DNA of 64,000 bases, taken from NCBI GenBank assembly GCA_030264375.1, contig JASCQW010000166.1, positions 15,406,512 through 15,470,511 on the forward strand. Direction: 5' to 3'. Position 1 is the stretch's first letter. Every line of letters begins with the position of its first letter. The position numbers and the translations under genes are program-made. Below, in pieces: positions 12,521 through 48,965 of this stretch. The notes beneath the pieces are model-generated. The model did no database searches and had not been told where the DNA came from. It worked only from the letters and a program-made list of their open reading frames with translations. The DNA comes from Carcharhinus longimanus (lineage: Eukaryota).

Positions 12521-12773
12521 GGAAAAGCAAGAAGTAGAGATTTTCTGCCTCTCACCAGGAACACAGTTGGCCTTGCAGCTGGTATTTTTGTTTGCTGGCA
12601 GTTTTTCACAACAGTTGTTATGGTATCGTACCTATTCCTCAGTATAGTTGGAAAAAAAGTATATCCATGGTATAGTTGCAGTGAATAGCTGATAGACATG
12701 GCTTTTCTTTTATTTCCACCTTCACCCAAGTATTTCAGAGCCCAATTTGTCATGATGTGCATAATAATAGTAC

Positions 12774-12921
12774 CCACTGCTCCAGATCCCAAGATTTCCA
12801 TATCTCCAGAGCACCATTTCAATAATGCTGTCCACTGCTCCAGATCCCAAAACTTGGATATCACCAGAGCACCATCTCAATACTGCTATCTACTGCTCCA
12901 GATCCCAAGACTTGGATATCT
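12774..12921. repeat. 58-bp minisatellite, about 2.6 copies
   Basis: The unit ccactgctccagatcccaa... starts at 12774, 12832 and 12890. Confidence 0.9.
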
Positions 12922-13846
12922 TCAGCATCTTGTCGCCTACATATTGCCTGGAACATCTTTCATCTTACCTTTTGTTGGATGCTGGTCTTAAAAAATGTTA
13001 TTTAGTTAGTACTGAAATGTAATAGTCATCCTCCCGGAATTAAGATTTCAGTTAAAATGTGGACACAATCATATACTCAGTTTTGAAGAAACAATCTATT
13101 TGACTTAAAACATTAACTCTGTTCTTCTGTCAACAGATGCGGCCAGAGCTTTTTTTTTCGCTTTCAGAATTCAGAGTTGCTTTTAATCACATATAAACCT
13201 GATATTACACTCCAGTTGCACTTGTTAAAAGATTAATTTCAGCTATCATAAATTCTTGGTTCTGATAATACATTGCAGTAAAATATGCCCGATACACTGT
13301 ATAAAGCCTCAGAATGTCCACTGGTATCTCGGTTTATATGTTCCGTCAAACACAAATCTGTCACACTTCATTACATTGGTAAACCAACCTTAAAAAATGG
13401 AAAAGCAGGCCAGTCATTGACCTGGAACTTGTAAGCATGTTCAATTGTCCTCTGACCTTGGTGGTTTACAAGCAGTTACAGTTATTTGGATTTGTCCATT
13501 TGCATCACTTCAACATAAGGAGACTTGAGCACTGCCCTTAAAGGAGCAAGCCCATGTTAACAGCTGAACCTTACAACTGTCCTGCATACGCTAGATTACA
13601 CGACATCACTTCTGCTGGCATCGTTACCTTGATGTTGATGTGACTTTGCCCCTTCAAGTTCACATGCTATTCCAAGTGATCGAAATCAAATCTTACATCC
13701 GTACATGTTGAGGATACTTAGTTTATTTTGTCTTGTCCTTTTTTTGGTCATCACTTTGCAGAACAACACATGCTACCCATCCACAAAATGGAGATAATAA
13801 TCTCGACAATAACTTGCAATGATGCACATTCCATCTGAGTGACAGC

Positions 13847-14846: not shown

Positions 14847-14918
14847 TGACCAAACAAACTGTTTTGAGTTTGACAAGTGAGTGACCAAACAAACTGTTTT
14901 GAGTTTGACAAGTGAGTG
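14847..14918. repeat. Exact 35-bp tandem duplication
   Basis: tgaccaaacaaactgttttgagtttgacaagtgag occurs twice (14847-14881 and 14882-14916). Confidence 0.95.
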
Positions 14919-23140: not shown

Positions 23141-24783
23141 GTATCAGTTCTGTGAACAATAGTGTTAAAACATGCTCAGGCTGGATGGACCACGAGGATC
23201 AGCAACAAGTAAACAAAACCATTTTAGCCCTGTAGTTGTTTATGTAGGTCCTGTTCTAAAATCTAGAAAGGAATGGCATCATTTACATTTTATTTTTGGG
23301 GCAAGATGATGATTTGGAGCTATTTATACTGGCAGCTGCTAATTGGAGTTTACTCCAAGGCTGAACTTGTTTTGCTCAAGTTGAAGCAAATTGAAACAGG
23401 AAGTGTGGGCTTTATAAAACACAGTGTTGTATAAAGTGTTGCTGCAATATCTATTTATAATCAGCAATTTCTCCTCAGTAGTGTGGGTAGCCCCTGATTC
23501 TACAAGTGATGTACATAGGTACAGACCCAAATCAGCATTTCAGATGCTTTTTTTATCCTCCTCATCCTGTCTTTATCCATTTCCGTTTTTAGACAATATG
23601 GAAGATGCTAATACCATTTCAAGCATCCTCTCCTCTATCATATGACTTTACGATTTGTTACCCTCATTAAGCACGTATCTTGAATCTCCAACCCTTTTTT
23701 CCAAGTCGGCTCACGGCACCCTTAACAAACCTTATCTGCTGTCGATCTTCTCAGTAGTCCCACACATTCTTCTCAACCTCACGCCTACACTGCATCTTAA
23801 AATTTTCAAAGGCATTACTCAATCTCCTGCATTCTTAGCAAAAACTGTTACATTCCCAAGCAAATTTGTTTCATCTGGTAAGCAACAAACTTGATGATGG
23901 ATGATTTTCCTTCATTCAGTGACCAGCTCAGGAATACCATCTTTGTTGTGGGTTAGTTGACCTAAATTGTGAGGATTTTTATATTCTGCTCGCCATTAGG
24001 AAGTGCAAGTCTGAATGAAAAATGGAAAGCATCAATGCACGAAACACAGGATAGGTTCCTGACCCTTGACATTCTTTTTTGTTGAGATGTGTTTCAGTTT
24101 TACCAATTGAGCATTTGTGTCAACTATGTTAATGAACTGAAACCATTCAACCATGCACTTTGCCCCAATTTGTTCGCTTGTGATATTTGGGTTCATCACG
24201 ATAAATCCCTTCTTGAACATTGATGGCCTCCCATTCAGTGACAGAGATTACAGCAGAACAGCCCCTCCCAAAACATTTACAGTAGTCTATTGAACCTTGA
24301 GGATCAATGATAGGAAAACATCCATTCAAACCAGTTATCCTCATGAACTCTCAGTTTGCCCATTTTGTTTGAAGAGAGAAAGAATGAAAAGTAATGTTAT
24401 GAACGTTAACCAGCACTAAAAGAAATTCATTTGTGCTTGCAAATGTGGAACTGCACGATACCCACTGAAGGTGATAGCCAAAGCATCATACACCTTCTAA
24501 GATGTACCATGAGAGTCGTTATATGTATTTAAACATTTCTGTGGTTTCCTAAGTATGTGATTACTTGTAAAATACTCAACAAAAATGTGATGCCTGTTAT
24601 CCAGCAGGTGGTGTAGCGGACTTCTTATTTTGCTACTAGTATTTGTGAATTATAAACTGATTCCTTGCTTAGTATCTTATTTAACTTAATGGCAGAGGGA
24701 ACTGCATTTTAGATGTGTTTGATTCGGTCAGTGAAGATGCTTTTTGAATAACTGAACAAAATTTTTTTCCCCTCTTTCCACAG

Positions 24784-25103
24784 ATCAAAAGGTTCTCAGC
24801 CATTTGACAAAGAGAGACAATGTTCCGGTCGGGGTCGCAAACGCAAAATTTCAGCAATCCCCTCATCAAAGTCGGGACGGTTGGATGGACTGAGCACTTT
24901 GAACTCGCGAACCACCAAATCTTCCCGCCTGAAAATGAACAAGAAAACCAAAGGGCTCATTGATGGCCTTAGCAAATTCTTCACCCCTTCACATGATGGC
25001 CGCAAGCCACGGGGTGAACTCCTGGACTTAGCTGAGCAATACAGGCTCAAGAAAAAGGGGCCACGAAAATCAAGCACTTCTGACAGCAGCACATGGCCCA
25101 CAG
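24784..25103 (+). CDS. KAT6A: KAT6A exon (exon 7 equivalent), short form using the proximal donor
   Basis: Acceptor ctttccacag, donor CAG|gtactg, 320 nt, phase 2 to 1. Translates SKGSQPF...GRGRKRKIS...[27 protein letters not shown]...[13 protein letters not shown], ending at WPT as human KAT6A exon 7 does. Confidence 0.93.
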
Positions 25104-25646
25104 GTACTGCACTGACCACATTAATCCCTGCATGCCCAGTATCACCTGAGATTTCTTTACCAGCGCCAAGGTGCCACATTAGTAACATCAGATCATCTTC
25201 TTGTGCTAGCCCGCTTGATAACTTCAATAAGCAGACATTCACTGGCCAGTTAACTAAGTGCAGAATGCCCAGGTTAAGAAAGGAGCCAATTGATTCTCCT
25301 TCCTCTCTTTATTCTCCCAAACTCTCTGGCGAAGCAGATGCTGAGTTAACTCCTCCTTGTCTTACACCATGTGAACCTTGTCCTACTTCCACTGCTAATT
25401 CTGTTCTCCCAAGCTATTGGGGCAGTAGCATGAAAAACAGTTGCAATTTGCAAATCTCACCTTACCTACGACTGAGTACATCTGTAGAAACGGCGGCTAA
25501 ACTGCACTCTCATTATTTCCTGCCGTTTTCTGTGAGAGAGAAAGCAATAAGGGGCAGCCGGTGTAAAATGAGACATGGAAAGACGATCCTTTGGCACAGG
25601 AAGGGGACCGTGGAATTAGAAAGGAGTAAAAGTGCCGAGGACAAGG
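25104..25646 (+). CDS. KAT6A: Putative alternative 3' extension of exon 7 (distal donor, +181 aa, Ser/Pro-rich then basic)
   Basis: The frame stays open past the proximal donor to a stop at 25655-25657. A donor AAG G|gtaaga at 25646/25647 has the same phase (1), and the 543-nt difference is a multiple of 3. Confidence 0.7.
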
Positions 25647-26361
25647 GTAAGAAGTAAATGCCATGCTATTGTGCATCGCTAGCACTAGAAATTGGCTTTT
25701 TAATTACGCTTTTTTGGGGTGCTTCAGGTAGTTGCTGTTCTCCTTTGGGAGGGGAAGGGGGTTGGGCTTGTGCCATGAAAGTAGCTCTGCATGTTTTCAT
25801 TTCAGCAATTAAAATAAAAATACACGATAGGTCCATAAGAATTTGAGGCAGGAACTTTCTTCACAATCTTTGTCAAATACTGCTGTTTATTTCCATTATT
25901 TTCTATCTTAATTTCAGACTTACTGCCTTCATATAATCATTGCGCTCATTAAATTGGCTGGTATATGAACACTTTGAAAGAGGGTGGGGTTGCAACACCA
26001 GGTGTCTGACCACATTATTTGCCTCCAAATGAACAGTGACATAGAAGTATTTCAAGGAAAGTACTGAAGTATCACTGCTACTGGGCATCACTTTCATGGC
26101 ATGAGAGGAACATCCATTTAAACTGGAAAATATTCCCCAAGGTAGAGTTGGCTGATTAAAATCTGGTCACATGCAGATTGATGAGGCCAGGTCACTTGCA
26201 GAGTATTTTCTGTATTGCATAGAATTGCATCTAGTCGCCTCCCGCTTTTTTATTCAAAGCATTTCAGCTCATTCGCATTTGAAGGATTAGAACAAAACTG
26301 CCCATTCTGGCACCTTTTCATTGGGTGTGAGAGAGAGAGAGACCAGTGCACTTCTAACTTA

Positions 26362-28790
26362 AAACAAGAACACAAGAAATAGGAGCATTTGGTCCCTCAA
26401 TCCTGCTCGGCCATTCAGTAAGCTCATAACCAATCTTTTCACTCACAGGTACCTTCCCACACCATCCCCATAACCTTTGATTTACATCGTATCCAAAAAT
26501 CGAATGAGCTCTGACTTGAATGTATACATCAACTGAGTACAGCTCTCTGGAGTAGAGAAGTCCAAAGGGTGACAGCTCTTTCATGTGAATAGATTATTCC
26601 TCATCTTGGTCCGAACTGGCTGACCTCTATTCTGAGATAGTGGCCTCCAGTTGTAGACTTTCCAGCTGGACAAAACATATTCCAACCATCTATCTTGCCA
26701 AACCCCATAAAAAGTATATATTTCAATGGGATTACCTCTCAGTCCAGGAAATGTAGGCTTTGCCTGCTTAATCTCTAAGGGGCAATCCCTTCAATTCCTT
26801 TAAGGCCTTGGGGAAAGAGACCAAAACTGTACATAGTACAGTTGTGATCTCACCAAGACCTTTCACAAGTGCAGTAAGACTTCTTTGGTTTTATATGGAA
26901 TTTGCTTTGTAATAAAGGACAGCTTGCTGTTTGTTTTCCTCATTGCTTGCTGCATCTGCAGGATAACTTTGTGATTTGTGTACAAGGATTCCCAGATCCT
27001 TCTGAATACCAACATAGCAATTTCTCAAAAATATTCTGCTTCCCTACAGTATCCTATCAATCTGGATAATTTCACATTTTTTCCATGTTATATTCTAGCT
27101 GCAACATTCTTGCCTGCTCACTTTAATCTGACTAAATTATTTTGCAGTTTCTTTGCGTCCTTCTCAAGTTTACTCTTCCACTCAACTTTGTATCATCAGC
27201 AAACATTAACAAATTGCACTCCATTCCCTCGATGTTTGTTGGTGGTAACTAGTTGAGACCCATCCCTGATCCACTAAAGGACCCATTTGTTCTTAGTGTT
27301 TGTTTTCTGACCATTAACTACTACTTAATCCATGATATATTATTTCCCATCCCTCTAAGAGATAACTTCCATGGCACTTTGTTGAATGCTTCTGGAAAAT
27401 ACCAATTTGAAACCTAGTTTCAGATGTAAATAAATCACTCAAACTCAAAATAAAATGACCATGTAATGATCGTTCTTCAGGAGTAATTAACCCTGCCCCA
27501 TTGCACAGTGCTGCATCCAAAATAGCTTGTTCCCTTGTGATTCCTTATTGCATTCCATGAAGTCATTCTCCACATTTTTAATGAAAATTATCTTTGTCAA
27601 GATGATTATGTTTCTCCAGAATGATTGTTTACCCTTGTTAAATACACCTCCAAATTCATGACCCATATGCTGCCTAATACTGCAACTACAGTTTGGAGAT
27701 CTATAAACTACCCCCAGCATTTCTGTCTTGTTATTTCTTCGTCTACCTAATCTGATTCTACTTCCTAATTTTTCCAAGCTAACATATTTTCTCACTGCTA
27801 TCTTTATCCCGTCTTCTATTATCGAGCCATCTCCTCCTCCCTCTTCCACTTTGCCTACCTTTTAAAAGTCTTATGTCCTGGGATATTTAATTCCTAACCC
27901 TAATCATTGTACAACCATGTCTCCATTTTTTTCTCTGAGTGCTATTCATCTATTTGGTTCTGAAAGCTTTGTAAGTACAAATCTAGTGCTTTTGCTTGAA
28001 TTATTTTCTGTTTTTCTCCATGTCATCCGAGTCACGAATACTCCAATATGTTTCTTCAACTTTCTGCATATTCTTGCCCAAACTATAATTTTGCTGGTGA
28101 ATTGATTTTGAACTTCATTATTTGAGAGTCCAGTTCTTCTAGCGTTAGTCCCAGTCTTTAAGCGAGTCAGTCCCAACTGAACAGCTCCCTCTTTTCTCTG
28201 TACTGATATGAGCATTCAAAGATTCAAAATCTCTGCCTTCCACACCACTGTTTCAGCCTTGCATTTAACCTGCTAATCTATTTGCCTTCAATTTGCAAGT
28301 GGCTCATAAGAATCCAGAGATGATTACCGAGGAGTTTCTGCATTATCGTTCCGACCCGAGCTCTCCAAACTCCTCCAGCAGACCCACCTTCCTCGACAGA
28401 GGTTGCTTCCTCAGTGGACCATGATAACTGGATCTTTCACTTCCTACTCCCAAGTTCTTCTCCTGTTGTGGGAAAGTGTCCTTAATTTTGGCACTCCTGG
28501 TCATGGCTGGAGAATACAGAGTCTGTCTCTTTATACCATACTATACTATGATGGCTGCATTCCTCTTTGACCTTCTGCTTTAAAGCCCTCTTATAACATG
28601 GTGACAGTCCCTTGAACCAAGTGTCCCCATAGCCATGTCCCGTTCCTTTGAAGCTCCAACAACATCTGTATCTCAGAAACCATTTTGACAACTCTGCACT
28701 GAAATTTCTGAGGAGCAACTGCTACAGGTCTGATTGTTTGGGATTGTGATGCTTTCCACAGCCTCCATATGATGCAGTTGCAGCACCTTT
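26362..28790 (-). mobile_element. Long decayed CR1 LINE (3' end to APE/ORF1 region, with deletions)
   Basis: Tail aagaacacaagaaataggagca at 26367. Minus-frame LGVVYRSPN (CR1 APE motif) at about 27700. RT remnants at 26800-27250. Confidence 0.7.
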
Positions 28791-29294
28791 TCTATTCTGC
28801 TTTCCTGTTACTTTGTTCAATTTGTCTTGTTAATTACTCTATGTATTTAATTAACTTAGCTAGTTCGTAGTTTTTAATCTAATGGTTCAATCTAGTTTTA
28901 GTTATAGGCAACTTAACTTCAATATTGACCTATACAATTGCCCTAGTCCCCCTCCACTGATGTTATTGTCACTGCAAATTATTTTCCCTCTTTCTTCTGC
29001 TTCTCTGAGACATCTGTTGAGGCCATGCCAGTTACTCCTCATTCTCCTGACTTTGCCAATCTTCTATTTAAATACCTGGGCTGCTCCAGGGTACTCCTCA
29101 TTCTCCTGATGTCTATTGCACTCCCGTTACCACTTTAACAAGTTTGTTACTAATCATTGCTTTCCCTTAATGTGAAATTGGCAGCTTTCTGTTAAAATAA
29201 CTTTAAAAATGCTGTTTTCTGTGTCCCTTTACCATGCTTAATTCCTCTGGCGCTCTGATGACCTCAACTTAATTCTTTGCCTTGTCTTAGGCTA

Positions 29295-29395
29295 CCCGAA
29301 CAAGCGCTGGAGTGCGACGATTAGAGAATTTTCACAATAACTTCATTGCAGTGTTAATGTAAACCTACGTGTGACATGAGTAAATAAATTAAAAA
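29295..29395 (+). mobile_element. SINE 3' tail fragment
   Basis: ttttcacaataacttcattgcagtgttaatgtaaacctacgtgtgaca matches the tail at 53533-53546 plus 53723-53760. Confidence 0.6.
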
Positions 29396-30471
29396 ATAAC
29401 TAAAAAGGATTGATTCCTTGGATTCACAAATCGCCTTCTTTCCCCCCGGCAGTGGCTTGTAGTGGGATCAGGACAAGTTGGTTTTATTAATAAAAATTGA
29501 GCACTCACCTACCTGGTGAACAGCATGCTGGCACACCAGTGTGCGACACTATAAGGCTGGCTTACTCAAATGGGATTTGTAGTTTGGTATTTTGTTTTAG
29601 TTTAGTGTAGATTCCATTTCAAAGGCAAAGTACTGAACTGAGCAAAAGGATGCTGATTCTCACAACCAAATGAGTGCTTCATTGTAACTTTTATCCTTAG
29701 CTTTATACCCGTAAGAGTATTTAATTCAAGCTGCTACTGCCTTCTGCTGTGTCCCTTGTTGCCTTTAATATTTGCTATCCTGCTTGTTTATGTTTATTTT
29801 GTAGTTTACATTGACTGTATTGGGCTGTTTTTTTTTAATGATGCAGGCTTCTGTCATTTCATTGTGTTAATATACTTTGCCATCACTGCCTGAGGTGAGT
29901 CCCTGATCTGAGCCCTCCAGTATGAAAGGTGCTCCAAACAGAGTTGAGGAGCTTCTCCAGTAAAACAGAAAGGGAAAGATGTACTCCCATCCACCTCCAA
30001 GAGTCACAGCACTGGTGGCAGAGACCTGGAATACTTCGCCTCGCCCTGTTAGCTGTAAAATTGTGGAGAACCAGCTAAGAGAGGGAACCCTCAGTACATG
30101 AAGTCAGAACCTTGTAATTTGGGGTTGATTGTCATGTGTTGGCTGTCGGATACTTGATTGATGCTGACTTACCTGCTGGTCCAATAAAAAAGATGCACAA
30201 AACTCCAGGTGGATGAGCAAAAGAAACAAAATACCCGAATCCAATCTAATTGGCAGTTCAGCAGTTGTTAAATTTATCCCCCAGATTGGTTGTAGTCTTG
30301 GAGATTTGAGGGCATTAATGTTGCTGTATGGCTCCATTAACTTTTAACAGCTATATTAACACATTGAGGTTGTCAGTTCTCAGTCTGCCCCTCTGTCAGT
30401 CAAGGTTGATTGCAGGAGGTTTTGCTGAAGGAAAGTCTCTCCGTTAATATGATGTTTTTCTGAATCTGCAG

Positions 30472-30590
30472 ACAATCAGGACTCGTGGGGCTGCAAACTT
30501 GAAAATGAGGATGACCAATCACTGAGCAAAGACATTGTGACAGAGAAAGACCTGGACTTATTTCAGCAAGTTCAGGAACTTGCACTGGAG
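30472..30590 (+). CDS. KAT6A: KAT6A exon (exon 8 equivalent), pre-MYST linker
   Basis: Acceptor atctgcag, donor gtgaga, 119 nt, phase 1 to 0. Translates (D)NQDSWGCKLENEDDQSLSKDIVTEKDLDLFQQVQELALE. Not present in the ORF track. Confidence 0.94.
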
Positions 30591-31245
30591 GTGAGATGCA
30601 ACACAGCATGACGTTGGTGACTGTTGGCTAATAAACTGTTTACATTACAGTTATTGACTTCAGGGCCAGAGATTTATTCTTATCTCTTGCAGATAAGGTA
30701 GATATTTTCAGACTTGCAGGAAATGAAGATGTGCCAAGCTGATTAGAGTAAAATTACATGCATACAGAATTTTTTTCTGCTGTTTTGAAAAGTAAAGTTG
30801 TGTATGAGGTGTTTGCAAAATCAGAAGAAAAGGTTAGCTCCAATGTATCAAGGATATTAGCTATAATAAAATAGATAGGCACGAAAGACTTAACTCCAAA
30901 CCTGCCCGTGCAGCTGAGGAAATTTTGGGCACAAGTTGCACGCGGCAAGAATCTATTCTGGCAGGTGATTTGTTTTAAGCCACAATATAGCCCAAGAGTT
31001 TCCAAACTGTAAGCATTAAGGATTTGAGCTTAACAGTGCAATTGGTCCAAGTCAAGTTGCATGCATTTGGTAACTAAATGTATAATTGCTGTGAAGAGCA
31101 ATAAATGTCAAATACACTTGTACATGTTGTTGAGAATGTGAGAATATGCTGTGTGAATGCCATGTTTGCTCCAGCACTCTGTACGAGTGTGTACACTATT
31201 TCCAATCATGTACAGAAATGCTGGTCCACAGATAATGCATGTTAG

Positions 31246-48099: not shown

Positions 48100-48965
48100 C
48101 TTTGTGCATTTCCCTTTAGGAATGTTGGTAAGCCTTTGGGGAGGATGTAGAAGAAATTCACTGGAATGGAATCAGGAATCAGAGGTTCAATTAAGCAAAG
48201 AGCTAAGAGAAGCTCTGTTTGTTCTCCATGGAGAAGAAAAAGTTCAGGTTGTGTGGTAGTTTATTAGTGTCACGAGTNNNNNNNNNNNNNNNNNNNNNNN
48301 NNNNNNNNNNNNNNNNNNNNNNNNNNNNNNNNNNNNNNNNNNNNNNNNNNNNNNNNNNNNNNNNNNNNNNNNNNNNNNNNNNNNNNNNNNNNNNNNNNNN
48401 NNNNNNNNNNNNNNNNNNNNNNNNNNNNNNNNNNNNNNNNNNNNNNNNNNNNNNNNNNNNNNNNNNNNNNNNNNNNNNNNNNNNNNNNNNNNNNNNNNNN
48501 NNNNNNNNNNNNNNNNNNNNNNNNNNNNNNNNNNNNNNNNNNNNNNNNNNNNNNNNNNACGTTCAAATCATTTTGATAGAGTGAATGCGAGGAAATTAAT
48601 TCCAGTAGTGGAAGGGTTAGTAAACAGGACACAAATGTAAAATGTTTCCCAGAGGCAACATGGGCAAACTTCTTAGACAGAAAGTTACTGTAATCTAGAA
48701 TAGACGATTGGTGTGAAAGAGTATTGGAAACAGAATTAGTTATAACTTTCAAAGAGGAATTGGATATAATGTTTAAGGGAGGAAAAAAATTTCAGAGCTA
48801 AGGGAACAAGAGGAGAAAATGACTAATTTAGATGTGCAGGTTAGGTGGTTTGGCAAATGTGAGATTACGGGGGCAGGGTGGATTTAAGATGCTCTGTCAA
48901 ATAGTCAGTGCAGACTCAATGGGTTGATGGCCTCCTTTTGCACTGTAGGGATTATGTGATTCTAC
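48100..48965 (+). mobile_element. CR1 3' fragment followed by a 5'-truncated HE1 SINE (48831-48963); contains a gap
   Basis: ttgttctccatggagaagaaaa, ttcaaagaggaattggata, gatgtgcaggttaggtgg..ggcctccttttgcactgtagggatt. Confidence 0.6.

Follow-up and report, generated by a model that had tools for sequence, protein, structure and literature searches.

Two splice donors and an in-frame 181-residue extension in the KAT6A linker exon of sharks, with a likely counterpart in KAT6B

One of the described systems close to the locus analysed here is the set of KAT6B (MORF) isoforms, which, like those of shark KAT6A, have an alternative length at the end of the paralogous exon and an insert of similar size. 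We take these to be the isoforms named MORF-alpha and MORF-beta; a literature search for the latter name gave no match. The KAT6B insert resembles that of the shark in being Ser/Pro-rich and then basic, and in the register of its C-terminus. Another close system is bony-vertebrate KAT6A (MOZ), with the same exon and the same short junction. Lengths of 2004 and 2073 aa are given for human KAT6A and KAT6B (PMC12722229, PMC12678635), and MOZ reportedly uses its basic domain in binding the MLL complex (PMC10078767). Our literature search, with few subscription papers in its scope, found nothing on what the KAT6B insert does or where it comes from, and nothing on a shark KAT6A isoform.

One exon, two donors, one frame

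The window is a stretch of 64,000 nt from the shark Carcharhinus longimanus (contig JASCQW010000166.1). With the Chiloscyllium KAT6A-like protein P0002 as tblastn query, ten exons were placed in order from 6875 to 63746; the double PHD finger (DPF) is encoded upstream and the MYST acetyltransferase domain downstream of the linker exon, which is the fifth KAT6A exon in the window (the label exon 7 presumably follows human numbering). The constitutive part of this exon is 92–93% identical to carpet-shark KAT6A-like proteins and 54–61% to bony-vertebrate KAT6A, and the exon and its neighbours are nearer to KAT6A than to KAT6B. From these identities and the ordered placement of the exons we conclude that the gene is a shark-like KAT6A. 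Two intronic tandem repeats (12763–12925, 58 bp x 2.8; 14847–14918, perfect, 35 bp x 2.1) and an assembly gap (48278–48558, a run of Ns within the intron that follows the exon at 30472) were also seen.

Both donors of the linker exon are used and the frame between them is conserved across sharks. The two donors (Table 1) are both in phase 1 and lie 543 nt, or 181 codons, apart, so that the common acceptor is reached in frame and without a stop from either. As the original prediction had it, the frame stays open for 184 codons past the first donor (WPT/G), the second donor of the same phase lying just ahead of the TAA at 25655–25657. No stop-free frame in the window is longer than the one containing the exon (24752–25657, 301 aa). 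The chance of such an opening per site had been put at about 1e-4; recomputed, it is 1.5e-4 from (61/64)^184, or 6e-5 with the stop frequency of the window itself, and of 61,013 overlapping start positions in introns not one opens a frame of 184 codons, the longest being 171. Donors 1 and 2 match the textbook 9-base consensus at 6 and 7 positions, respectively, which is a count of matches and not a score of strength. The constitutive part also contains a core motif common to KAT6A and KAT6B (P0002 residues 401–418).

Table 1. The linker exon of KAT6A and the exon that follows it in the window; a slash marks the splice boundary.
Feature	Position	Strand	Observation
Constitutive part of the linker exon, basic region between DPF and MYST domain (acceptor 24784)	24784..25103	+	93% identity with residues 348–452 of P0002 (Chiloscyllium, KAT6A-like)
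Proximal donor CAG/GTACTG (short isoform)	25101..25109	+	Joint 25103->30472 in runs X1, X2, X4
In-frame extension, 543 nt, 181 aa	25104..25646	+	First 121 aa with 30% Ser+Pro; last 60 aa with net charge +8
Weak second copy of core motif (insert aa 59–76), at the offset of the clear copy in KAT6B inserts	25277..25330	+	p 0.002 in the window
Best-conserved stretch of the insert (aa 121–160)	25463..25582	+	39/40 residues identical to each of five carpet-shark proteins
Basic C-terminal 40 aa of the insert; ungapped alignment to KAT6B insert end in donor register	25526..25645	+	
Distal donor AGG/GTAAGA (long isoform)	25644..25652	+	Joint 25646->30472 in runs X1, X2, X4
Next exon, acceptor common to both forms	30472..30591	+	

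Relation to KAT6B and to bony-vertebrate KAT6A

KAT6B donors were read from the ends of proteins, and the short KAT6B forms splice at the place matching donor 1. Between the positions matching the two donors, three fish-like KAT6B reading frames hold 175 (P0157, Goodea), 184 (P0158) and 184 aa (P0159), to be compared with 181 aa in the shark; the donor positions are the same as for a KAT6B-type insert and the length is similar. The sequences themselves differ strongly from the shark insert, with an overall identity of 15–18%, and the net charge of the last 60 aa is +11 to +14 in KAT6B inserts versus +8 or +9 in sharks.

Two anchored comparisons point to a common origin; both anchors were spotted by eye before testing, and the pairs compared are not independent. 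When the last 40 aa are aligned without gaps from the distal donor, shark and KAT6B inserts give Z values of 2.2–4.4, and this register is the best of about 140 in 8 of the 9 pairs. The same ungapped block is also the best free local match found by hhalign, and global alignment scores reach Z values of 1.3–6.5. The second anchor is the core motif, which recurs at aa 56–59 in all three KAT6B inserts (0/1000 shuffles) and has its best match at aa 58–59 in five of six shark-type inserts (p 0.002–0.019), the scan failing in the whale shark insert (p 0.67). With the KAT6B copy as query the shark copy was not found (p 0.24–0.58); the second copy is clear in KAT6B and weak in the shark. In P0157–P0159, insert aa 56–76 form a clear internal repeat of the core motif of the exon, with an L-x-x-F-F pattern that may resemble motifs of the PIP/MIP type.

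Free comparisons of shark and KAT6B inserts gave less. The hhalign profile match was not significant (E 0.25; 33/150 and 70/150 column shuffles reach the score), the HMMER inclusion threshold was passed by one of nine sequences only, at 4.6 bits, and for local pairwise scores just 2 of 12 pairs exceeded every one of 500 full shuffles. On the homology of the two inserts the anchored comparisons are positive and the free profile comparison negative. The same division applies to the likely view of the second donor as older than the KAT6A/KAT6B duplication: the anchored comparisons favour it, and the free profile comparisons fall short of significance. The protein searches brought up neither an outgroup from before the duplication (lamprey, amphioxus) nor a shark KAT6B.

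These free comparisons and the low identity are what one would see if the shark long form, real and functional as it may be, had arisen by independent exonisation of intron sequence, its likeness to KAT6B being a convergence of disordered basic stretches; moreover, the G-T with which the insert starts is partly dictated by the donor sequence. Against this, both donor positions, the nearly equal length, the ungapped register at the distal donor and the offset of the motif would all have to recur, and we regard an independent origin as rather unlikely. A common ancestry of the shark KAT6A and KAT6B inserts is, judged from these sequence comparisons, quite probable.

KAT6B may have a third state at this exon. 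The catalytic glycine of mouse KAT6B isoform 1 is placed at 577 (PMC13327545), versus 685–686 in rodent short-donor KAT6B proteins. The gap corresponds to about one exon and suggests an exon-skipped form, so that a whole-exon-skip form of KAT6B is likely.

Bony-vertebrate KAT6A differs from the shark gene in having the short spacer in 90 of 92 proteins (among the best 120 of 512 matches listed), a count that is weak alone, since a short form served as query and the 27 listed KAT6B proteins, too, were without exception short forms. The other two carry insertions unrelated to that of the shark; the insertions of P0068 and P0070 do not match the shark insert. We give more weight to genomic reading frames of the tetrapod/teleost KAT6A type that run past the donor, all 22 of which stop about 2–55 residues beyond it and end 44–97 residues after the core motif, versus 226 in the window; none of the 22 is assignable to gar, coelacanth or lungfish. 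P0141, which looks chimeric, and P0155, which is KAT6B-like and diverges from the others midway, were left out of these counts.

The explanation which we think probable is that two 5' splice donors compete within one KAT6A exon and give rise to two in-frame transcripts, 181 codons apart, in the linker between the DPF and the MYST domain, the extension being a likely ancestral KAT6 feature that KAT6B and the KAT6A of sharks have retained and that bony-vertebrate KAT6A has likely lost.

Conservation and transcripts of the shark insert

The long form had been called hidden and under-described. This was overstated, since RefSeq already predicts it, as isoform X1, in the carpet sharks Hemiscyllium ocellatum, Chiloscyllium punctatum, C. 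plagiosum and Rhincodon typus, in the first two with short forms beside it. The long isoforms XP_060712673.1, XP_072410284.1, XP_020386712.1 and XP_043537474.1 agree with the window in having exactly 181 aa at WPT/.../DNQD, the short ones being isoforms X2/X3. Five RefSeq inserts from the four species are all of this length, free of indels and identical to the window at 139–144 of 181 residues; these are automated predictions, and the identity is only 77–80%. Insert aa 121–160 are near-invariant across the five proteins. The zebra shark (Stegostoma) model P0128 has the insert too; this isoform X2 model starts at a Met inside the insert, without the winged-helix and PHD domains, and may reflect either a real internal start or an artefact of the model. 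Another small alternative splice of shark KAT6A, outside the window, consists of the presence or absence of 5 aa (KVHVQ) after the MYST domain (P0131/P0038, P0002/P0037). A protein search with the insert only had matched none of 333 candidates, because the long forms measure 2030 aa and the search covered a range of 528–2000 aa.

A HMMER search over 1.84 billion representatives gave 29 matches, one of which (P0135) extends over the whole insert. The reading frame of P0135 is identical to the window insert at 114/181 residues (63%), is intact, has indels of whole codons only and ends as in the window (...AEDK/GKK). Between whale and epaulette shark the insert is 90.6% identical, the next exon 90% and the region after MYST 90%; the insert changes as fast as the remaining unstructured regions of the coding sequence. 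Runs X2 and X4 show 8 differences, 5 synonymous and 3 not (omega 0.18–0.32), and the synonymous excess rests on these few changes (p 0.02; with transition sites as the basis, 0.10). The frame is intact in carpet sharks and in P0135, as the prediction required.

Twenty listed runs, none of them registered as RNA, contain the stretch or a part of it, and four of 22 listed runs were placed on 25000–30640; that these runs are RNA is a guess. Both GT..AG joints, leading from two donors to one acceptor as in alternative 5' splicing, were found in contigs of three of the four (X1, X2 and X4), from three organisms and three studies. In each of the three a 602-nt contig covers 25074–25645 and runs on into the next exon, and the short joint rests on a 27-letter side. 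In run X5 neither joint was found, its single contig (299 nt) lying inside the insert. The intron past donor 2 (25756–26322) had no cover in any of the four runs. Contig depths of the long and short forms were 21.6/13.5, 7.45/13.2 and 8.1/45.2 in X1, X2 and X4, the long form making up roughly 15–62% of both; since contig depth is a poor measure of expression, we take this only to mean that neither form is vanishingly rare. A short high-copy element at 29294–29395 of the intron appears in thousands of contigs of all four runs with loose ends on both sides; it resembles a SINE or LINE 3' tail, and other copies explain the A>G differences seen in it more simply than editing does.

Splicing noise that is tolerated, and open only because shark genomes change slowly, would agree with the small number of substitutions and with an insert less conserved than the constitutive exon (77% versus 98/106 residues against epaulette shark), but a frame that stays open at 63% identity, all its indels being whole codons, a near-invariant block of 40 aa and the depth of the long form in three runs, rough as it is, make it very unlikely. 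Intron retention or DNA in the runs, without a second donor, is scarcely credible in spite of the guessed RNA label, as GT..AG joints from 25646 to 30472 are present in the contigs and cover ends at the donor; such joints indicate spliced molecules, whatever the label of the run. A long KAT6A isoform with a Ser/Pro-rich and then basic insert is therefore real, spliced and conserved, as contigs and five carpet-shark proteins attest.

A longer linker and its possible role

No Pfam family and no Rfam match were found for the insert, PDB sequence searches with the KAT6B insert and KAT6A linker reading frames gave no matches, and the best value in the ESM Atlas (0.76) was at chance level. RNA structure in the insert gave no signal (z +2.0). 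AlphaFold2 on nine insert sequences yielded a mean pLDDT of 50 and a pTM of 0.10 without elements, on a shallow alignment. Together with the 30% Ser+Pro followed by a charge of +8, the absence of a Pfam family and this low pLDDT suggest that the insert is disordered.

The insert would leave DPF and MYST intact and prolong the basic domain. The tether from the histone reader to the catalytic domain would become longer, and would gain a basic patch as well as another copy of the linker core motif. Its likeliest effect would be on reach and on partner or chromatin binding. That a disordered extension of the basic domain, by its longer tether, basic patch and motif copy, tunes binding rather than catalysis is a tentative reading.

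A more far-reaching and somewhat doubtful scheme is that the linker exon of the ancestral vertebrate KAT6 contained a duplicated docking motif whose copy number was set by a splice switch, with none on exon skip, one from the short donor and two from the long donor, and that KAT6B and shark KAT6A kept this switch, which bony-vertebrate KAT6A lost. If true, the motif copy number would set the binding to a partner, for example the MLL complex, giving a testable function for the KAT6B isoforms.

The long isoform being already present in automated annotation limits the surprise; the part that is probably unreported is its likely common origin with the KAT6B insert, together with the repeated motif. 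Such an origin would date a splice switch in a disease-linked pair of chromatin enzymes to before the KAT6A/KAT6B duplication. It would point to a concrete way in which human KAT6A and KAT6B differ, the first having lost and the second having retained a long linker that bears a repeated motif, and the repeated motif and the conserved basic block would be specific targets for probing the role of the KAT6B long isoform.
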